A DNA stretch of 64,000 nucleotides. Origin: Octopus vulgaris (taxonomy: Eukaryota). Positions 1,056 to 62,566 of the stretch are shown here, piece after piece; within the stretch, counting starts at the first letter, position 1, and each line of letters starts with the position of its first letter. The position numbers and the translations under genes are program-made. The notes beneath the pieces are model-generated. The model saw only the letters and a list, made by a program, of their open reading frames with translations. It was not told the DNA's origin and ran no database searches. The stretch covers positions 67,456,001 to 67,520,000 of the forward strand of contig OX597818.1 of assembly GCA_951406725.2 (NCBI GenBank), written 5' to 3'.

Positions 1056-4000
1056 GGATGTTCCCTGGGAGCCTCTCTCCAAAAAACGAATTTAATCCAA
1101 CAACATCGTTGCAATGGAAGAAAGGTTCCACAAAATATATTTTCCAAACTTTCTTTTAAGGCAAAGTAACCAAAAAAGTCCGAACTATTATTGCCATATA
1201 TAGTATGGTTTTCTTTCTTTTATGCATAATAATTCCATGTGACATGCATAAGAAATAGAAGCGAACATCAGAGCTCTTGAAAGACAGTAAGTACATAAAT
1301 TAATTAATTAATTAATTAATTAAATAAGTATACATGCAACTGTTTATGCATACACGTAGACATTTTAATTGTAAAGTATACATGCAACTGTTTGTGCATA
1401 CATGTACACATTTTAATTATAAAGCATAAATAATGCATACACGCGCTCACACGTACACACAGAAAAAAAAACCACGTTACGCGGACGAAAACAAAACAAA
1501 AACAAAGCGATTTTTCACGAACAAACGCAAAAAAGAGCAAATTGGTCACTGAATTTAGAAAGTCACTGAACAGTTATGCCCGGAAACATGACTACCAAAA
1601 TAAATAGAGGCGAATTTCGATCTGTAAGTCTTATGCGAGTTCGATATGAACAATATATTAATTCGGAGAATTCAGAAGCGGTGTCTTGTCAAAAAATTGA
1701 CCCTGTACAAACACTCCCTTCTTCTAACGACACCGTCACAGAGGCGGCGTCTTGTCAAAAAGTTGACTCTGAAAAAATGGACCCCTCTGATGTCGCCGTC
1801 AATCATTTAATGAAAACAAGCCAAAAATCATGCCGGATCGGTCATCGCCCGGGACAACAAGGACCGCGTTACCCAGTAGGGAACCAGACTGGGGTCGAAA
1901 AGTTTGCTGCTGGAACAAACTCTCAAAAAGACGATCTACCAGGTGACCAGAACCAGAATACTTCTAACTCTGGACTTGTAGTGACACCACCAAAAACACC
2001 ACCTAAAGCAAAACGTATAAAATGGACCAGAGAGGACTATAGAGATGTGTTGAAAGCTTTTTATACAGCCCAACTAAACCCAAGTAATAACCTCAGTGTA
2101 CAAACATACATCTCATGGAGACATTCAGTAGGCAATGACGTACGTAGATATATAGACGCAAATAAATTAAGTAATGTACGCAGAGATATAATTAAAAACA
2201 AAAGACTAACTGACGCTGAAATTGACAAAATTAGGACACTGATAGCTCATGGTAGACCAAAAGAAAACAGCAACAATGTAGACAAAATAGGTAACAGTAG
2301 CACAGAAGCCAGTGTACAAGCGGCAAATCAACTTCCCAATGGGGAAGTTAAACAAAGAATAGCGAAGACGAGAGATTTGAAAACAGAGGAGAACGTAGAC
2401 CTTCCTCAAGAAAACCAAAATAGATATGACATAGAATTTGAGGTGAATAATAGAGAAAAGATTATGGAAGCAAAAGTGGACATTATGAGAGAACTCGGCA
2501 AGATTGAGCTCACTGAGATGGTTAATAGAGAACCACTACCAAAGTTTTCAAATGGCACAAGAAATAACAACACAATCATGACATATAACGTTGCCCTAGG
2601 ACAGATCTTAAGAAATACGGGGAATGATTTGATAACCTTAAATAATCTCATTTATTCCACTGCTAAAGTAGTAACTACCCAACTAGGTATTAAGATGACA
2701 AAGAAAAAGGCCAGGCATGTCAATGAACCTCCTAAGTGGAAAGTAGCGATACAAAAAGAGATTGAATCTCTGCGGGCGGATGTTTCAGTTCTCGATGAGC
2801 TTGCTAGAGGAGTGAATATTAAGCCGAGAAAAGCTAGAAAAATCAAGCAAAAATATAAAATCAAAGATCTCATAAACCTCCCTGCAACTAAGGAACTGTT
2901 GAAACAACGGATACAGTTGAAAGCTCAACGGCTTAGAAGGTATGACAAAAGAAACAAATTTTATCGACAAAATAAATTTTTTTAAGACAGATGCAAAGAA
3001 ATTTTATTGGGAAATTGGCAAAAATAAAATACACATAGAAGATCCACCTAAGATTGAGGAAGTGGAGGAGTTCTGGAAGAAGGTATGGAGCAACGAAAAA
3101 GCGTTTAATGCTGAGGCTGACTGGATAGAACGTGAGAAAGAGAGACTGGATGAACTTGAAGAACAGAAATGGGAAGCAATAGGAATAGAGGAGCTAAGGT
3201 GTGTCCTTAGGAAGGCTCATAAATGGAAAACCCCAGGACTGGATCGGATCCCTAACTTCTGGCTGAATTGTTTGACAGAGGTACACGAACATCTCGCTGC
3301 ATCTCTGTCTGATGTCATTCAGAACCCAGAGCAAATACCTGCTTGGCTGACTGAAGGAACCACCTACCTATTACCTAAAACCGAAGACACAAAAAACCCA
3401 AAGAATTACCGGCCAATAACATGTCTCAACACCACCTACAAAATCCTCACATCCATAATAACGGAGAGAATGTACGCTTTCCTTGAACAAAATTCTATCC
3501 TTCCACAAGCTCAAAAAGGTTGTAAAAGAAACTCTTATGAGTGCAAAGACCAATTGCTCATAAACAGAATGATTGTAGAGAATTACCGGAGCAAAAACAA
3601 AAACCTGAGTATGGCATGGATAGACTACAGGAAAGCGTATGACAGTGTCCCACATAAATGAATACTCAAGGCCCTTGAGATATACAAGATCTCTCCTGTC
3701 GTCTCAAAATTCTTAGAGAATAGCATGACCATGTGGAACACACGTCTCTTTTTAAGCCATAGTAATGGAATGAGCCAGTCCAACAGCATCAACATCAAAC
3801 GAGGCATCTTTCAAGGTGACTCCCTCTCTCCATTACTTTTTTGCATGGCACTGATCCCACTCTCAAACGAATTGGATAGTACTAGATATGGGTACAAAGT
3901 TTTTAGTAAATTAATAAACCATCTTTTCTATATGGACGACCTAAAGCTGTTTGCCAGGAATGACCAAGAGCTAGAAGGGCTGCTAACAACTGTTAAAGAG

Positions 4001-5637
4001 TTTAGCAATGATATCGGAATGGATTTTGGCCTTGATAAGTGTGCTAAAGCAACTTTTGTAAGAGGCAAGCTCAGGCAAACAGCTTCTGTTAAGTTAGATA
4101 TTGACACTACCATCAAGGAACTTGACCCACAGGAAAGTTACAAATACCTAGGAATCAACGAAGGAGATGGTATACATCATGCTACTATGAAGGAAAAAAT
4201 AAGAAAGGAATACTATAGGAGAATAAGACTTGTACTGAAGACTGAGCTCAACTCCAAAAATTGCATTGAGGCCATTAACACCCTGGCACTTCCAGTAGTC
4301 CAGTACAGTTTTAATATCATTAACTGGAACCTTACGGAACTCCAACGCTTAGACAGGAAGACAAGAAAGTTACTGACATCCAGGAGCATGCACCACCCTA
4401 AGGCAGATGTAGACCGCTTGTACCTACCTAGAAGCAGCGGGGGGAGAGGAATGATGCAATTAGAGCTGTGCTATAAGACCTCTACTGTAGGAATGAACAT
4501 GTACCTATCTAGTACAAAGGACTGGATGCTGCGACTTGTGCGCGAACACGAAAGCAGCAAAAAGCTGCATTCTATTGTCAAGGAAGCTTATAAGTTCGAA
4601 AGGGAACTAGACATTAACCTTGAATCAGATGAAGAGCCGGAAACCACTGCTACCAAGCAAGCAAAGCGAATCAAGCAGACTGCAAAAAAGAACGGGCAGA
4701 ATCAAATTGAGAGGCGGTGGAGCCAGAAGCCCCTGCATGGACAATATATTCTCCGAAGCCAAAATGCTGATGTAGACCAAGCAACAACCCATCAGTGGCT
4801 GAAGAGCTCTGGATTGAAAGCAGAGACTGAAGGTTTCATAATGGCAGCACAAGATCAAAGCTTGTTTACCAGAAATTACCAGGCTAACGTTCTCCGAAAC
4901 GGTACTGACCCTAAATGCAGATTCTGCGACACATTTGACGAAACGATAGACCATCTCGTTTCGGGATGTCCTGTGCTGACACCAAACGAATACAAAAATT
5001 GCCACGATAGGGTAGGACAGTATATACATTGGAAGATATGTAAACACTACAAATCCGACACTCCTGCTAACTGGTACGAACACCATCCTCAGCCAGTTGT
5101 TGAAGGTAAAGATGTCACCATCCTCTGGGATTTTCCAGTCAACACTGACAGAACGATCAAGGCTAATCGACCAGACATAATTGTTAAGGACAGGGAAGAA
5201 AATACCTGCAGACTAATAGAAGTAAGCGTCCCCACTGATAAAAATGTATCTGTCAAGGAATTTGACAAACTTAGTAAATATAAGGACCTGGAAATCGAAA
5301 TACAGAGGATGTGGAATCTTAAAACAAAAACTGTTCCTGTTATTGTAGGTGCCCTAGGTATGATAAAAAAGGGATGTCAGAAACACCTAGACAATATCCC
5401 TGGAAAACCATGTCTCAAGGAAATCCAAAAAATTGTGCTAACAAGTACTGCCCACATCCTTAGAAAAACCCTATCAATGTAAATGTCTGTGTTTGCATTA
5501 CATGGAGATATATCTCTACTTCCCCTCCCCAAGCTTTCAGCTGTATTTCAACAACTCTTAACCTTCACTTGCCCTAGGGCGCTGGGTGTGCCCCGGCAGG
5601 TGATTGCATCAAACATGCAGATTAAAAGTAAATGACA
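1056..5637 (+). mobile_element. R4/Dong-clade non-LTR retrotransposon (single ORF, RT plus restriction-like endonuclease), near full length
   Basis: Flanked on both sides by (AAT)n. RT motifs: PGLD, KNYRPITCL, WIDYRKAYDSVPH, GIFQGDSLSP, YMDD (3929-3940), YKYLG. C-terminal CCHC (CRFC..HLVSGC) and RLE motifs HDRV, RPDI, IEVSVP, KLSKY. Dong elements are known to target (TAA)n. Confidence 0.93.
1576..5482 (+). pseudogene. Retrotransposon polyprotein ORF (~1300 aa if repaired), broken by a +1 frameshift in the T7 run at 2977-2983 and a TGA at 3659-3661
   Basis: ORFs 1576-2985, 2942-3661 and 3725-5482 join into one ORF on deleting one T (NKFFKTD) and reading the TGA as Trp (VPHK*ILKAL). Confidence 0.88.
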
Positions 5638-5661
5638 ATGATAATAATAATAATAATAATA

Positions 5662-6210
<549 letters not shown>

Positions 6211-9017: not shown

Positions 9018-9230
9018 ATATACTTTATATAAAGCAGCAGAAAATTCAACAAAACTTGTTACTCTGAGTTTCCCGTTACCGTTCAAAAACTGTCCGATGA
9101 ACGGCAAAGGGAAACTCAGAGTAACAGGCTTTGTTGAATTTTCTGCTGCTTTAAATAAAGCATATTACTTTACCACTGGTATTTGAGTACTCCTTTTTCC
9201 ACCTTGTTTCACATTTATGTGTTTACTCCA

Positions 9231-9447: not shown

Positions 9448-10852
9448 TATATATGTGTGTGTATACGAATACATGTGTGATCTTAAATGAGATTCATCCA
9501 CCATACTGTAATTATACTGTAGCAAATTGACCATGACATTTCCACAGGCTCACGCTTTCTGTTACAAACATTACCGTGCCAAATGTATAAGGGGTTAATA
9601 TTTAAGGATCCCTTTTATTGAAAAACTTTAATAAACTGAAACAGGCACACAACTACATATTCGTACGTACACACGTTCACACACCCACAAACGCTGAAGC
9701 AATCAGTCATATATATTGTTTAGAATAGGTGCATGTATTTCACCTATGGATCTTATATATGCAAGTGTTCCTTCGACCTGGCTGAGGGGCATACTTTATC
9801 GTATTTGTGTTCTTCAAGAGTAGCCTGCCATTCTTTCCTACCACATCCTTCTTTTCTCCTTGAATACCCCGCTTAAATTCGAAATAATTATTATTCACAT
9901 CTTCATAACTTTATCCTAAAAACATTAAATTTCTATCGACATATTACAGGATTGTTACTAAAACTTCTGCTTTTGTGTTGCCTAGCTACAATACATACCT
10001 TACATATCTGTGTATGGTGCGCATGTCTGAACTAAGTGAATTATTAACAGCACACTTATAGCCAATCTTGCATTTCTTTCAGTAAATTTCATTGATTTTT
10101 GCAGTAATTCGATAAAGAATATTTCAATTGCAACAGTCATTATTCGACTTCTGTTTAAAACAGTTTTTAAAAATATTATAAACATTTTGATAATTTTAAA
10201 ACTCTATTTAATATCTAATTTCAATTTTCCTCGAATATTTATTGCGTTTCGTTTTGTTTCGTTTTACATTTGGTCGCGCCAAAAATTAGTATTTGTTACT
10301 AGTTTATGTTTTCTCCATAACACTAAATTGTTCTTGATATGATTTAACATGATTCTAATTGGGGAGACAACATGAAATACATTTTTATATTTTAGTTAAT
10401 TATATTTCATAATTAATACATGAAAAAATAAATATTATTTCTGCAACATTGTACTCGCTGATGAAAATTGATTTCACAGGAAATATTCTCCACAAAGCTT
10501 AACGGAGTTATGTTTCATGATATTCTTTAACATCATTATTGTTCTCATTAACGTGTGCCCACTTTTACAGATTTCTAATTCAGTTTTAGCAGTTTGAGAT
10601 ATTTCGTATATTTCTTCACAACGAGATTCACCATCATTTGGAGTTTGATACTTCTTTTTACTCTCTGTGATGTTATTTAAATATGCTTATTGAACGTAAT
10701 CTAACAATATTTCACGTTCACAGTACCTCTCGCTTTAATTTCCATGAACGTCATGGGAAAGTCAGGATAACCGAAATTAATGTACGTTTTATTTTCACAA
10801 TATATTTAGATTTATATATCTGCACCTATTTTTATAACTATGTAAACATATA

Positions 10853-10897
<45 letters not shown>

Positions 10898-11039
10898 TTG
10901 AATAATAACACCTATTATCAATTAAATTAGAACATTTTGAATCATTATGTATTATAGAAAGATTAAATATAAGAGAAAAGATACAACAATGATTACGTAA
11001 TGTGCAAAATAATAAATAAAACGTATATATTTGGTTGAA

Positions 11040-11122
11040 TAACGACACGTGTTTCGTGGCTATATTTAAGAAAGGATATTAGTAAAATCAATTCAATATA
11101 AATATAGCCACTTATCAGGTTA
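11040..11122 (-). ncRNA. Minimal type-I hammerhead ribozyme motif (G8->A variant core)
   Basis: Minus strand: stem I TAAC/GTTA; core CTGATAA; perfect 13-bp stem II GTGGCTATATTTA/TAAATATAGCCAC; GAAA; palindromic stem III ACACGTGT; cleavage triplet GUC. Confidence 0.8.
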
Positions 11123-11257
11123 AAGATAACAACAATAATAAAATGATTAATTAGATAACTTAATAAATATACGTAAATACTTTTGTAAAATACGAAGTAG
11201 CTTAATAAATATATTCTTGCTTAAAAAAGAAGATACAACTAATTAAAATATTAAAAT

Positions 11258-11340
<83 letters not shown>

Positions 11341-11489
11341 CAAAATATACATTAAGTGAAAATTAAATACTATAAATAAAACTATATACATTAATTTAAA
11401 TTATTGATTAATTACTTAATCGAATAAACATCGAAATAAAATCTTATACTTATTAAGTAATTTATATTACAACCCTTCATGGTAAGTGA

Positions 11490-12072
11490 TATACATTCCC
11501 TCCGCCTTTATATAACCTACCACAGCTGCATGGGATGGAATACACGCAGTCTTTGTTCATATTGTCTTCTATTGGTGGTTTTGCTCGAAGGAGATATTTG
11601 CGAAGCGTTGTATTACACTTGAATACTGTCCTGATGTCATATGGGCCTCCTATCTTTTGTATCTTTTCAGTGAGGCCTTTGAAATAGAGTAGACAGACTG
11701 TGGATAGTTTATTGGCCTCATCCTCTCTCTTTTCCAGAATTGGAGTGGAGAGTATGCTTTTGGGGTAGTTCTTGCTTAACAGATCGTTATTGAGCTTAAT
11801 CATTTCTTTGTGGTGTGTATCACGATCGATGCTTATATACTTTGCACGATGTTTTAGTCGCTGAGCAATCCCTCTCTTTACACTGTATGGATGGTGGGAA
11901 TTGAAGTTGAAGTATCGTACAGTGAAGGACGGCTTCCCGCAAGCCGATATACGGAAGTCCCGAATCCATACTTGGTGCGTGTTTTTATTACGTCCAGGAA
12001 TGCCAGGTGATTGTCTTTTTCCTTTTCTATTGTGAGCTGTATGGGTAGATTTATTGAGTTCACATATGACAC
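11490..12072 (-). pseudogene. Penelope-like element relic: RT C-terminus, linker and start of the GIY-YIG endonuclease
   Basis: IQLTIEKEKDNHLAFLDV..FGTSVYR; RYFNFNSHHPYSVKRGI; NYPKSIL; CVYSIPCSCGRLYKG (GIY..YIG-like). Frameshifted. Confidence 0.88.
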
Positions 12073-12188
12073 GAGGAGATATTGATAAATCGGGTATAGC
12101 TGAGCATGTATGGAAAAATGGTGACCCCTCCCCGTGGGATGAAGTTAAAAAAATAGACATAGTACACCACTGAAAAATTCGAAAATTA
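12066..12188 (+). pseudogene. Inverted fragment of the PLE GIY-YIG C-terminal region
   Basis: Plus strand reads TRGDIDKSGIAEHVWKNGD..PWDEVKKID..*KIRKL, matching the S-x-I-A-E-H..W pattern of PLE endonucleases; it abuts the minus-strand piece. Confidence 0.75.
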
Positions 12189-12299
12189 ATCTGCTTTCAA
12201 AAGAATGACTAGGAAGTATTTGCGGTTGTTTGTGTATGTATAGATGTTGGGGTAGATGATGCACAATATGTTTGTAGCACGAAGCTAGAGGTTATAAAT

Positions 12300-12720
12300 T
12301 TACTCTTTACTCTTTTACTCTTTTACTTGTTTCAGTCATTTGACTGCGGCCATGCTGGAGCACCGCCTTTAGTCGAGCAAATCGACCCCGGGACTTATTC
12401 TTTGTAAGCCCAGTACTTATTCTATCAGTCTCTTTTGCCGAACCGCTAAGTGACAGGGGACGTAAACACACCAGCATCGGTTGTCAAGCAATGCTAGGGA
12501 GACAAACACAGACACACAAACACATACACATATATATATATATATATAGATATATACGATAGGCTTCTTTCAGTTTCCGTCTACCAAATCCACTCACAAG
12601 GCATTGGTCGGCCCGGGGCTATAGCAGAAGACACTTGCCCAAGATGCCACGCAGTGGGACTGAACCCGGAACCATGTGGTTGGTTAGCAAGCTACTTACC
12701 ACACAGCCACTCCTGCGCCT
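12300..12720 (-). mobile_element. tRNA-derived SINE family B with internal (TA)n/(TG)n
   Basis: Head TGGCTGTGTGGTAAG..GGGTTCAGTCCC, CTTGGGCAAGTG segment and (GTAAAAGA)n-like tail; matches copies at 44136 and 47462. Confidence 0.9.
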
Positions 12721-16830: not shown

Positions 16831-16861
<31 letters not shown>

Positions 16862-16869
16862 GTGTGTGT

Positions 16870-17085
16870 GTGTGTTTGTGTGTATGTTTGTCCCGTCATC
16901 ATCACTTACAATCGATGGTGGCGTGTCTACGACCCCTTAAATTAGCTGTTCGGCAAAAGAGATCGATTGAATAAGTACTAGGCTTACAAAAAATAAGTCT
17001 TGCTCTCGATTTGCTCGACTAAAGGCTGTGCTCCAGCATGGCTTCACTCAAATGACTGAAACAAATAAAAGAATAAAACAAATAA
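16870..17085 (+). mobile_element. SINE family B, 3' half
   Basis: GTTCGGCAAAAGAG..ATAAGTACTAGGCTTACAAA..GTGCTCCAGCATGGC..AAATGACTGAAACAA. Confidence 0.8.
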
Positions 17086-18857: not shown

Positions 18858-19005
18858 ACAGATCTATATTTAAGAGATGTGGAATTATGTACATTATTTA
18901 CATTATTTACATTTGACAGATACTTATCCTCATCTTGTTTGTTGTTAACGCAACATTTCGGCTGATATACCTTCCAGGCATCATCAGGTGCCTTGGGGAA
19001 ATTTG
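18858..19005 (-). mobile_element. Family D hammerhead-bearing tail (HHR at 18947-18992)
   Basis: Minus strand GGCAC-CTGATGA-TGCCTG-gaaggtatat-CAGCC-GAAA-TGTT-GCGTT, followed by the shared tail ACAAGATGAGGATAAGTATCTGTCAAATGTAAATAATG. Confidence 0.85.
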
Positions 19006-27718: not shown

Positions 27719-27894
27719 TTACGTTATTTACATTATTTACATTTGACGAATATTTGTCCTCTTCTTATTGGTTGTTAACACGTTTCTAGTAATATAACCT
27801 CCAGCATTCATTAGGTGTCTTGGGGAGATTACGAACCTGGGTTCCCATTCCTAAAGAATTTTTCGATGTTAATATTATTATTATTATTATTATT

Positions 27895-27952
<58 letters not shown>

Positions 27953-28077
27953 CCATTATTATTGCGTAGTGGTTAAGAGCGCGTGCTACTAACCACAAGC
28001 TTCCGAGTTCGATTGCAGTCAGTGAACTGAGTAATAACAACAACAACAACAACACTAATAATAATAATAATAATGAT

Positions 28078-28138
<61 letters not shown>

Positions 28139-28238
28139 TCGAATTCCCCAAGACACCTGATGGAGGCTGGAGTTTATATCAGCAGAAACGTTGTGTTAAC
28201 AAACAAGATGAAGAGAAATATCCGTCAAATGTAAATAA
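27719..28238. mobile_element. Family D fold-back insertion: inverted partial copy (27719-27960, -) plus tRNA-headed HHR unit (27962-28238, +)
   Basis: Plus unit: GCGTAGTGG..GAGTTCGATT head, (AAT)n, then GACAC-CTGATGG-AGGCTG..CAGCA-GAAA-CGTT-GTGTT at 28152-28197. The left arm is the reverse complement of the tail. Confidence 0.85.
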
Positions 28239-30539
28239 TATGAGATTTTACTATCTAATTCCTTGATAAATATTCAGCGCCAAAGAAAGAAGTGTAGACA
28301 GGATGGCCATCACCAGAATGCATTTGTAAATATAGGTTCTCTCCCTAAAGAATCGACTGGTGACAAAATGCAACAATATAGGTCTGCCACGTGTCCCACA
28401 AGTGCAACAAACAATTCCGCGTTAACCACCTGAAAATATCAATATTCTGGAAAAATGGTATTTTATTAAATATCTTGGAATAATGGAAAATAAAAATAAA
28501 TCAGAATGAAAGAAAATGAAGGTCGAAACAGATCTCCATCGCCATTGTAATGGTCCATTGTTAGCGTTTCAAACTGCTGCTACAAATATAGCTCAGTTTT
28601 GAAATATTATTTTGATCAACATTACAGTGCCATTTTTATGTAAGGACGCACACGTGTGTGTGTGTATGCGTGTGCGTGTGTGTGTGCTTGTGTTTGCGCG
28701 TCTATGTGCGCGTGTGCCTGTGTATGTGTATGCACATATTATACAAACTGAATGATGATGATGACGATGATGATGATAATGAGAAACAATAATTGAAATG
28801 TGGATAACAACAGCTGGAGACGAGATACTAACATTAAAAGTATATTATACCGAAAATGTATAGAATTGTTCCAGAAAGAATGCTCTATAACCTTTGCATG
28901 TGACATATTAATACTTATTTTCTATACAACTGCTTATAACCAGAAGGGGAAAAAAAACAACTTCAAAGTCGTCAACACTGCTATTAACATAGTCATCGAT
29001 GATAGATCAATATTGAACTGAGCCAAAATTCAAAGCGATTCTTGCAGACAGTTCAGACAATACCAAAATAGGGTAAAGGAAACAATATATACCAAATATC
29101 AAGTATTGAATAACAATTCGTGCATTTTTGGTAAAAGGCCACATGTTTTTACAAGAAGGATCAGTCTACCACCGTAGTAGAGTGTTAGATATCTAAATGC
29201 TGTTCCATGCTAGAGTATATATTCTATAGAGATTTTAGTTAACTCGAGGGATGCAGAAGTGACAGATGCATTTGATACTGCTCATTAGAGAATCGTAATG
29301 CAGCTATAGTTATTTTCTTTTACAACGAATCAGTAATTCCTTGCATATTTCAGCGGCCACAAAAGCACAAAGTTAATATTGGCAATATTTGAAACTAGGA
29401 TCTGAAGAATAATTCTTAAATATCGGAGAGCTTTTTCTGTTCTACAAATTTTAAAGGTGTATTATTTTAAATTATATAAAGAGACAACAAAAATACGTTT
29501 ATCACCCTAGTATGAATGTAATTATTTTAAATGTTATTTCTTTCCCCATAGACTTCCTTAAAAACATTTTGATAAAATATTCTCGTTAATTTTAATTATA
29601 TACACTACAGATAATTTGTCTCCCCTTGTGAAATATAGGCACATGAAATATTTGAGTAAAAAACGACTTTGATAAAGAATTTCCGCTTCCTTTCTCTTGG
29701 CTATTATTTTGGCAAATAAGTTGTGTTAATTACATACACAGTTTTTGAAAGGAAATTTGCAAGAGACGGGAAGGTATGCACAATGGTTCCACACCGCATA
29801 ATTTGAGTTTGGGGCTGAATCAAATGTTTTGCAATATTTTGGTAACTTATTTGCTTCTTTTGTCAACTTACAAAAAAGTGCAGCCTAGTATTCAAAATAG
29901 AAGCGATTGTGTTGCACTGTGTGAGGCAACTTTTCTCTCAGTTATTTTATCCGGCTCTGATATCAGTTCTTAATTTTCGAGGCGAAGAACTACTTCACTG
30001 AAACTACCACCTCTTCTTGTGTGACCAAGTGTTTCGAAATAGTAACCAAACCTCCTTGAGGTTGCTCTTGACATCTTTAATCAAGAAAGCTATAAACTCA
30101 TTACGTAGCGATAAAATAATGCAATCTTGAACAAAAAATCTCTAAATGAGAGATGAACTGTTCACAGCTTGGTTATAACTTAGATTATTTCTATTTCTAT
30201 ATTTGTAATTCTGTTTGGTCTGGATCAAAATTGACTTGTTTCTATATAATAACACACACTCATATGTAGAAACTATTTGTCTAAACGCAGTTTTTTTCTA
30301 ACACAAACATGTTCAAGAGAATTGGTAAAAATAAATATTTCAAGTTTGAAACTCGTGATCCCTATTCTTTTTTTTTCTTTGAAGTAAGTTATGTTTATCA
30401 AGAAAAGCTCTCCCTTGTGACAATTTTCAAAAATTCGTTAATATAATTTTGAATGTATGGTGGTTATCAATATATTCATAACTGCCAATACATGGAAAGA
30501 TTTTATCTACATTATCACTAATATACTATAAATTCGCTT

Positions 30540-43915: not shown

Positions 43916-44135
43916 CCTCACCCTCATAATTTCCGATTTACCCGTCTCCCACTCTTAATATTGCTACTCTTTCTTGCTAGAAAAATCCCGCGCTGAAATT
44001 GAAACAAGGTACCGTGTGTTCTATTCCAACGAAATGCACTCTTCCCACCGAATTTCGAACACTCAGCCTATGTCCCCACTTTGGTAGGAGGCATGTTCAG
44101 AGCGCTTCTATTTAATCACTACCCGATCACTACCC

Positions 44136-44293
44136 AGGAGTGGCTGTGTGATAAGTACCTCGTTTACCAACCACATGGTTCCGGGTTCAGTCCCACTGCG
44201 TGGGACCTTGGGCAAATGCCTTCTACTATAGCTTCGGGCCGACCAAAGCTTTGTGAGTGGATTTGGTGGACGGAAACTGAAAAGAAGCCCGTC

Positions 44294-44344
<51 letters not shown>

Positions 44345-44568
44345 TGTGTGTGTTTGTGTGTCTGTGTTTGTTCCCCTAGCATTGCTTGACAATCGATGCT
44401 GGTGTGTTTACGTCCCCGTTACTTAGCGGTTCGGCAAAAGAGACCAATAGCATAAGTACTGGGCTTACAAAAGAATAAGTCTCGGGGTCGAGTTGCTCGA
44501 TTAAAGGCGGTGCTCCAGCATAGCCGCAGTCAAATGACTGAAACAAGTAAAAGAGTAAAAAGAGTAAT
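44136..44568 (+). mobile_element. SINE family B, full length
   Basis: Head, internal (TA)n and AAGTAAAAGAGTAAAAAGAGT tail. Confidence 0.9.
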
Positions 44569-44805
44569 AGTAGTGAATTCACGTTGCCTACGACTTATGT
44601 TGTTCGACTCATAATTACCAGAACGCAGTTTCGATTCAGGAAGCGAGCATTGAGCTCTTCAAGAAACAACTGCATTGCACGTTGCTCCAGTTCCTTCCGC
44701 TGAAAACTGAATGACTAAGCGGTGAAGAGGTGTGATGTCGGTCTCTTCTGCGCTATAGAAATGTATCTCGGAGTTTTAGGACCTGAGAAAACAACGTTCA
44801 TGTTT

Positions 44806-47070: not shown

Positions 47071-47461
47071 GATGTTGCCCATACCTCTTTACAAAATTGC
47101 ATTCCCAAGAAATTTCAAGAAATAATTAGCAATAAATGCTGAAAAGAGTCGAGTCAACAAAGTATAAAACACATGCTCTGTAGCTTTCAATAACAGAATG
47201 AAAGTCTGTCATCATTAAACTACACCTTGCATTGTGGGTCATTCAATTCTGCTGCTGCTGACAGCAGATCGCCAGCTGCAATATCACCATCTCCAGTGTT
47301 TTATGGCAGGCAGGATTTATGCAACAAGAGGTGGGCTGAGTTTATTTGAACAACATCGAAGCGCTCGTCTCTGTCTTCCGAGTACATTTGAAGTTAAAGT
47401 ACCGAAGACATTTTACAGTTCCATTTCAGATAGAGTTTCATTCTTTGATCAGAAATCTCTC

Positions 47462-47870
47462 TTTTTCTATTTTTACTTGTTTCAGTCCTTTTGACTGCGG
47501 CCATGCTGGTGCACCGCCTTTAATCGATTAATTCGACCCCGGGACTTATGCTTTGTAAGCCCAGTACTTATTCTATCGGTCTTTTTTGCCGAACCGCTAG
47601 CTGACGGGGACATAACACACCAGCATCGGTTGTCAAGCAATGCTAGGGGGACAAACACAGACGCACAAACATATACACACATACATATATATATATTTAT
47701 ATACATATATACAACGGGCTTCTTTCAGTTTCCGTCTACCAAATCCACTCACAAGGCTTTGGTCGGCCCGAGGTTATAGTAGAAGACACATGCCCAAAGT
47801 GCCACGCAGTGGGCTTGAGCCCGGAACCATGTGGTTGGTAAACAAGCTACTTACCACACAGCCATTCCTG
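47462..47870 (-). mobile_element. SINE family B
   Basis: Matches 12300-12720. Confidence 0.9.
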
Positions 47871-56326: not shown

Positions 56327-56467
56327 TCTATATTTAAGAGATGAGAAATTACGTACAATATTTACATTATTTACATTTGACGGATATTTATCCTCATCTT
56401 GTTTGTTGTGTGAACAACGAACAACATGAGATAAATATCCGTCAAATGTAAATAATGTAAATAATGA
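56327..56467. mobile_element. Family D collapsed fold-back (two inverted tail ends) nested inside a SINE C copy (~56280-56630)
   Basis: TTTACATTATTTACATTTGACGGATATTTATC..GATAAATATCCGTCAAATGTAAATAATGTAAA, with a SINE C head upstream and the SINE C body downstream. Confidence 0.8.
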
Positions 56468-57740: not shown

Positions 57741-58004
57741 CGCCCCGGTAATATTATGTAGAAATATACATAGTATGTAGAAAATCTAAGTGTCTGGTTT
57801 TAAATACTCTACAAATACTTTTGCTGCAAGTATTATTTTTTCCGCTCCTCATGGTTTCTGAGTTTACTTTCGGCTACCAACTATCTTGGCGAATGACAGA
57901 AAATCTCGCCGGATTCTAATGTTCCAGATCCTTCCATTCATATATTCATATCTACTTACTTGAATATGTACATAGATACATACATTCATACAGGCACGGA
58001 TCTG

Positions 58005-58355
58005 GATGTATGGTAAAATGTTTGCTGTCAACCATATGGTTCGGGTTTCAGTCCCATTGTGTACCAGCTTGGACAAGTATCCTCCACTGTAGCCTTGTGA
58101 GTGGAATTGCCCAGAGGAAATTGAAAGAAGCCTCATAAACACCACACACACACACACATACACACATACGTGCGTGTGTGTGTGTCCAATCACTGCTTGA
58201 TAGCCGATGTTTTCTTTAAATACCCGTTACTTCGTGGTTCCTCAAAACACACGGATATGATAATACCGAACCATGAAAATAAATACACACTTTGGTTAAT
58301 TGATTCAACTAACCATGGCTGCAGTCTAATGCCTGAAACAAGTAGAAGATAAAGG
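58005..58355 (+). mobile_element. SINE family B, old copy
   Basis: AACCATATGGTT..CAGTCCCA..CCTTGTGAGTGGA..GAAAGAAGCC..CATGGCTGCAGTC..TGAAACAAGTA. Confidence 0.7.
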
Positions 58356-58459
58356 ACTTCAATACAGGCAGTGTACAAATCTTCCCGGCGATTCGAATAG
58401 CACAATATTCTAGCAATAATTTGTAGCCTCGCCTAGATCCGTGACCACTGTATCATATG

Positions 58460-62026: not shown

Positions 62027-62237
62027 CAGTTCTATATTTAAGAGATGAGGAATTATGTACATTATGTACATTATGTACATTATTTACATTATTTACATTT
62101 GCCGGATATTTGTCCTCATCTTGTTTATTGTTAACACAAAGTTCCGGCTGATATACCTTCAAGCTTTCTTCAGATGTCTTGGGGAAATTTCAAATTTGGG
62201 TTCTCATTCCTTAGGCATATTTTGATGTTATTGTTAT

Positions 62238-62289
<52 letters not shown>

Positions 62290-62352
62290 ACTACTACTAC
62301 TACTGCTACCACCAACAACACTATTACTACTACTACTATTACTTATTATTAA

Positions 62353-62400
<48 letters not shown>

Positions 62401-62566
62401 CATTCAAGTCACTGCTTGGAATCGAACTCGGAATCTCGGGGTTAGCAGCCCACGCCATTAACCACTACACCATATCCCCATGGGTATATCAGCCGAAACG
62501 TTGTATTAACAACAAACAAAACGATGACAAATATCCGTCAAATATAAGTAAAGTAAATAAAGTACA
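62027..62566. mobile_element. Family D: tRNA-headed HHR unit (62480->62027, -) plus inverted partial tail (62482-62566, +)
   Basis: Minus-strand head TGGTGTAGTGG (A box)..GGGCTGCTAACCC..GAGTTCGATTCC (B box); (AAT)n/(AGT)n; HHR relic GACAT-CTGAAGA..CAGCC-GGAA-CTTT-GTGTT at 62133-62178. The plus arm starts GGGTATATCAGCCGAAACGTTGT. Confidence 0.88.

Follow-up and report, generated by a model that had tools for sequence, protein, structure and literature searches.

A hammerhead-like motif in Octopus vulgaris DNA, with the remains of a Penelope-like element (PLE) beside it, raises three questions: whether the motif is a genuine ribozyme, whether this copy can still cleave, and which mobile element it came from. 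We analyzed the whole stretch of 64,000 nucleotides in which it lies, referred to here as the window. The reading we favor, with a probability of roughly 0.68, is a decayed minimal hammerhead ribozyme from the 3' end of a multi-copy, TA-targeting PLE.

All elements of a hammerhead were found on the minus strand, running from 11122 down to 11040 (Table 1), and the original prediction of a minimal hammerhead with a TAAC/GTTA stem I, a 13-bp stem II, a 30-nt loop, GAAA, a palindrome, and a GUC site proved correct in each of them. Helix II consists of 13 contiguous Watson-Crick pairs, 11111-11099 with 11068-11056, starting with G10.1-C11.1; loop II is AT-rich and occupies 11098-11069, and 56 nt separate the two core boxes. 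C17 of the cut site is at 11044, with cleavage predicted between 11044 and 11043. Of the features that define PLE minimal hammerheads, the GAAA box, the UH cut site, the G10.1-C11.1 pair, and a helix I of 4 to 5 bp are all present here. This copy lacks the CUGANGA core with its 3-8 pair, C3 standing opposite A8, and A9 passes directly into G10.1, where an extra nucleotide would be expected.

TABLE 1 Features at and around the ribozyme, in window coordinates
Feature	Position	Strand	Evidence
Type I minimal hammerhead ribozyme, A for G at core position 8	11040..11122	-	Type I scan, strict descriptor
Stem I, 4 bp	11122-11119 / 11043-11040	-	
Core, C3 to A9 (A at position 8 = 11113)	C3 = 11118 to A9 = 11112	-	
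Helix II	11056..11111	-	Fold and scan; relatives differ at 11067-11098 by loop variants, gaps, and loose ends
GAAA box	11055-11052	-	
Helix III palindrome, 8 nt	11045..11052	-	Palindromes pair in two-copy co-fold
AT-rich island holding the ribozyme, 367 bp, 20% GC	10896..11262	-	Related contigs from four runs; GC count
(TA)18 tract at 3' end of island	10858..10894	.	
(TA)37 tract dividing island from coding relic	11261..11335	.	
15%-GC stretch, no homology to relatives of coding relic	11336..11490	.	
Penelope/Poseidon-type relic, reverse transcriptase (RT) end to GIY-YIG start; P0001 residues 298-487	11504..12078	-	tblastn, 56-61% identity to P0001-P0003
Later part of same endonuclease; P0001 residues 504-546	12066..12188	+	tblastn, E 6e-8 to 6e-4

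When both strands were scanned for type I hammerheads with a combined stem length of at least 11 bp, 11040..11122 was the only match; in a relaxed scan the motif scored 20 bp, and the other 15 of 16 rows scored 12 bp or less. A strict descriptor, which was drawn up after the motif had been seen, matched once in the window and in none of 300 block-wise dinucleotide shuffles, and a looser descriptor gave 10 matches in 300 shuffles. The ribozyme strand folded with a z score of -3.87, with no equally stable fold in 200 shuffles. The covariance-model check that had been proposed for the motif came out negative: no Rfam family reached its gathering score anywhere in the window, and none of the 11 matches at an E value of up to 10 between 9500 and 13000 belonged to a hammerhead family. 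We are nonetheless almost certain that 11040..11122 is a real member of a hammerhead family, the sole unusual trait of which is its long, variable helix II.

A single RNA copy does not adopt the hammerhead as its minimum-energy fold (-19.2 kcal/mol, versus -12.6 kcal/mol for the hammerhead shape with loop II open). The two-copy co-fold, at -48.1 kcal/mol, kept helix II in each copy and joined the two copies through an 8-bp helix III formed from the palindromes, the duplex of which gave -10.3 kcal/mol by itself. The palindrome is thus predicted to allow dimers, and PLE hammerheads have been described as working through dimers of this kind (PMC4209133; review, PMC6765202).

The motif had been placed on the same strand as a PLE relic and about 370 bp from it, with the suggestion that the two belong together. 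The distance is real (382 nt from the ribozyme to the last homologous codon, at 11504), as is the shared strand where the minus-strand piece of the relic is concerned; the link to the relic found no support. The minus-strand piece carries one frameshift near 11950 and ends mid-endonuclease, and the later endonuclease part is on the plus strand; the two pieces, with GC contents of 42% and 37%, lie head-to-head with a 13-nt DNA overlap at their junction, and their protein segments do not overlap. By its translation and by comparison with P0001-P0003, the relic encodes an RT followed by a C-terminal GIY-YIG domain with two cysteines and no zinc-finger linker, the clade being assigned by inspection rather than from a tree. 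The database protein P0001 carries RVT_1, and Pfam gave no match in three relic pieces. Across 62 window open reading frames (ORFs) (61 of the 95, plus one more), the only Pfam family found was RVT_1, in 2 of 62. Elsewhere in the window, 1570-5948 on the plus strand holds long, nearly intact non-LTR retrotransposon frames of 471, 246, 606, and 115 amino acids with RVT_1 matches.

Could the ribozyme be the 3' pLTR hammerhead of this Poseidon-type neighbor, the last 95 codons having been lost and the AT-rich DNA with its TA tract being the 3' untranslated region? We consider this unlikely, even though the ribozyme shares its strand with the larger coding piece and PLE copies, as described in PMC8557442, often form inverted 5'-truncated pairs. 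The gap does not encode the missing residues 488-582, some of which are on the plus strand, and no tblastn match to relatives of the relic was found between 11504 and the ribozyme. GC content falls over the same interval from 42% to 15-20%, with the (TA)37 tract intervening. In the Poseidon element of PMC11167929, moreover, the ORF begins inside the ribozyme, whereas here the three frames past the cut site are short or stop-ridden. Two non-overlapping pieces also fit a single inverted insertion, and the relic may well be a separate, 5'-inverted insertion whose 3' end would face away from the ribozyme, toward higher coordinates. Insertions inverted at the 5' end are accounted for by the twin-priming model. 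Because the endonuclease end is on the plus strand, the gap is non-homologous, and a TA tract lies between, the ribozyme is probably not part of the adjacent relic: their proximity is real, yet it does not count as evidence that the ribozyme belongs to the ORF of the relic.

A decayed hammerhead from the 3' end of a TA-targeting PLE, the reading we prefer, is suggested by the island itself. The ribozyme lies about 145 nt from the 3' end of the island and its TA tract, and since this TA-flanked layout and the ribozyme design both fit, the island may be read as the 5'-truncated 3' end of such an element. Remnants of the ORF of a parent element were sought in the window by tblastn, profile search, and six-frame scan, and none was found. 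One candidate, a putative decayed end of a Hydra-type endonuclease at 11389-11502, did not hold up: profile searching gave only the tandem-repeat protein P0004, and the four-residue motif of the candidate occurs nine times across the six frames of the window. On the other side of the island, 10477-10686 on the minus strand is a 70-codon open frame of ordinary composition with no Pfam match, possibly an exon or the remnant of a transposon. At 9036-9168, a near-perfect, MITE-like inverted repeat some 130 bp long is flanked by TA tracts, and a SINE-like repeat of about 420 bp recurs at 12297-12715, 44135-44579, 47459-47870, 16860-17078, and 57984-58356, its best copies being 85-89% identical.

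The following sequence of events would account for the locus. A multi-copy Penelope-like family inserting into (TA)n would carry a type I hammerhead near its 3' end, and only about 370 bp of that end would have been copied into this site, presumably by 5' truncation. Where an intact transcript carries the element in tandem, helix III would form between the palindromes of two ribozymes, which would then cut after GUC; such cleavage processes multimeric RNA, as established for the hammerhead class and presumably true of this family also. A later change of G8 to A in the present copy would have left a C3-A8 mismatch and, with no partner copy, probably an inactive ribozyme.

Thirteen of the 24 public sequencing runs listed contain part of the stretch; none of them is annotated as RNA, and X8 is only presumed to be. 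Contigs of four of these (X1, X2, X3, and X8) were aligned to 10896-11262 at 80% likeness, and 876, 868, 829, and 77 contigs matched. Because many related contigs share a conserved core, we take 10896-11262 to be a member of a multi-copy repeat family whose core is intact. Among the contigs listed, none covers the whole island; one X2 contig is identical to its 3' flank over 121 letters. Contig depth peaks at 11000-11025 and drops toward the 5' side of the element, sharply past 11130; summed contig depth is not copy number and was not used as such. Loop II differs in sequence and length among relatives and is rich in simple repeats. A G10.4-to-A variant of helix II makes up about 20-24% of depth in X1-X3 and 6% in X8, with no compensating change at its partner among the variant rows listed, which speaks mildly against strict conservation of helix II.

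The island might alternatively be a small non-autonomous element, resembling a retrozyme or a SINE, that centers on the ribozyme and spreads without an ORF of its own, but we regard this as quite unlikely. Most of the depth indeed lies at about 10950-11130, with an approximately 4- to 7-fold drop immediately 5' of stem I in the three DNA or unlabelled runs, relatives run on into differing 5' sequences, and animal retrozymes have been proposed to stem from PLE ends (10.64898/2026.07.22.740005). Against this, 5' truncation and subfamily divergence give the same depth profile, contig depth being a weak measure, and the retrozymes described in PMC7229834 occur as tandem arrays whose type I ribozymes are of canonical form. 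Tandem repeats that each carry a type I hammerhead mark such elements, and the window holds a single copy. A further thought, which we regard as a long shot, is that an abundant TA-targeting family with a long-helix hammerhead represents an ORF-less mobile RNA or a PLE group thought to be hammerhead-free; if so, PLE ribozymes with long helices would form a class overlooked by current descriptors. The core search of PMC8557442 allowed a spacer of 7-17 nt, and the Naiad "half cores" noted there are of 35-50 nt; the 56 nt between the core boxes here exceed both.

The original prediction had reasoned that A in place of G8 breaks the C3-G8 pair and probably inactivates the copy, and had proposed to look at paralogues. 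The related contigs support this reasoning, carrying G8 in all four runs at 99.4-100% of depth: 11434.9 of 11486.5 in X1 (99.55%, 50 contigs), 23062 of 23187.3 in X2 (99.46%, 33 contigs), 8566.5 of 8620.3 in X3 (99.38%, 46 contigs), and 122.4 of 122.4 in X8 (100%, 7 contigs). Position N7, which is free to vary, reads A in 22-57%, and no variants at other core positions appear among the variant rows listed for the four runs; at the level of the family, the core is therefore CUGANGA. Deletion of G8 was rejected in favor of substitution, since the variant listed at that position among the relatives is a substitution, with no indel. Because the relatives carry G8, A8 at 11113 reads as a lesion, a rare substitution through decay and not a family trait.

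G8 pairs with C3, and its 2'-OH serves as general acid (PMC3088659; PMC12192606). In a Poseidon PLE hammerhead, cleavage is lost with either G8C or C3G alone and returns in part when the two are combined (PMC11167929), the mutants assayed there being G8C and C3G rather than G8A; a published cleavage test of G8A was not found in the literature searched. Natural A8 variants are accompanied by U3 in the collections described (PMC4209133; PMC3088659). Given the C3-A8 mismatch and the single copy of this ribozyme in the 64-kb window, the copy is probably inactive, a dead fossil and ordinary genome debris. That A8 is instead a functional natural variant, or that this copy acts as partner strand in a trans dimer, is highly improbable: no damage is seen in helix II, the palindrome, or the GUC site, and the substrate half of a dimer should by hammerhead architecture need only the 3' strand, which is unchanged, but letters other than G make up no more than 0.6% of depth at position 8, C3 is unchanged and offers no compensation, and the 64-kb window has no second copy to pair with.

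Within the preferred reading of a PLE 3' end, we put at about even odds that the parent element belongs to the Hydra clade. It appears the best match among the PLE groups compared, as judged by layout and ribozyme design; Neptune-type elements likewise favor microsatellites. Nearly all Hydra-clade families have (TA)n as their insertion target and contain a hammerhead (Craig et al. 2021, PMC8557442), and TA tracts flank the island on both sides at this one locus. From Files S1/S2 of that study we calculated that, of 25 Hydra-clade hammerheads on the sense strand, 23 stop 25-148 nt short of the 3' end of the element, the two exceptions lying 350 nt from it and at the 5' end; the corresponding distance here falls within the published range. 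Marks of the Hydra-clade ORF are RWK, DKT, and a CxCX5C linker without CCHH, and no ORF remnant was identified at the island.

The window contains a second repeat with a different, decayed hammerhead-like motif, at 18863-19004, 27720-28239, 56327-56466, and 62070-62566; the loci 27720-28239 and 62070-62566 each contain two opposed copies with trinucleotide tracts between them. The original prediction had called the motif studied here unrelated to a "family D," which we take to be this repeat, and blastn indeed found no similarity between the repeat and the island. Several unrelated hammerhead families per genome are the published norm (PMC4209133; PMC7229834), such motifs number thousands per metazoan genome (PMC4209133), and the giant squid has 235 Rfam hammerhead matches (PMC6962438).

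A description of this hammerhead family was not found in the literature searched, which included the supplement of PMC8557442 and part of that of PMC4209133, and ribozymes go unmentioned in the passages searched of an octopus repeat annotation (PMC13282606). A 13-letter motif was absent in both orientations from the PMC8557442 supplement, where line breaks might mask a match, and three octopus Naiad 3' ends from that source bear no likeness by eye. In the 3' ends of Naiad_Obim and Naiad_Ovul (PMC8557442, File S5), a GAAA box directly follows a short hairpin and is itself followed by CUGAUGA, a permuted order that we read from the sequence alone; the authors give only a "half core" for these elements. 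Metagenomes gave no match to a 19-letter exact motif, nor to a descriptor whose gap range excluded even this copy. Viral contigs gave no match to a 16-letter motif; a looser core pattern found four loci, none of which shares helix III or stem I with the present motif. Phage contigs L004 (1501-1546, minus strand) and L002 and L005 (1501-1549, minus strand) have both core boxes around a helix II and are candidate hammerheads in their own right. A P0001 search returned no loci in viral contigs and one weak match in bacterial sequences (L001, E 7e-4), which was not judged relevant. In one alignment, a row wrongly placed on an AAT repeat was disregarded.

Among known systems, the ribozyme most resembles metazoan PLE minimal hammerheads (Cervera and De la Pena 2014, PMC4209133): at the family level it shares their CUGANGA and GAAA boxes and G10.1-C11.1 pair, a short helix I, a long helix II, a palindromic helix III for dimers, and the dispersal of many single copies from truncated elements. 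It differs from them in its 13-bp helix II with a 30-nt loop (7-8 bp in those described), in the absence of an extra nucleotide after A9, in its 8-nt palindrome, and, in this copy, in C3-A8. Like the Hydra-clade hammerheads Penelope-1_NV, Hydra-1_cRog, and Penelope-17_HM (PMC8557442), it lies in a (TA)n context and no more than about 150 nt from the 3' end, and their helix III of 3-4 bp is a further shared feature. Penelope-1_NV shares with this family the core, the GUGG/CCAC base of helix II, and the lack of an extra nucleotide after A9, and several Hydra-clade rows in that source have no nucleotide between A9 and G10.1. In contrast to these, helix II and its loop are much longer here and the ORF is absent; the Hydra-1_Obim ribozyme also differs from it in sequence. 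A spike-moss PLE from the same study has a 9-bp helix II with a loop of similar length to this one.

The Poseidon element PAc of Anolis (PMC11167929) resembles the neighboring relic in its RT-then-GIY-YIG order without a zinc-finger linker; the PAc hammerhead overlaps the ORF start, while the ribozyme here is not tied to the relic. A hammerhead adjoining a PLE coding relic, then, need not belong to that relic. Animal non-LTR retrozymes (PMC7229834) are, like the island, AT-rich, non-coding, and multi-copy with a type I hammerhead; unlike them, the island has neither a tandem array nor the canonical 6-bp and 4-bp helices. Rfam and the commonly used descriptors overlook family members whose helix II is very long, and genomes of this sort may therefore hold more hammerheads than have been counted. 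That PLE ends carry minimal hammerheads is already known, and what is new here is one further family, with a long, variable helix II.
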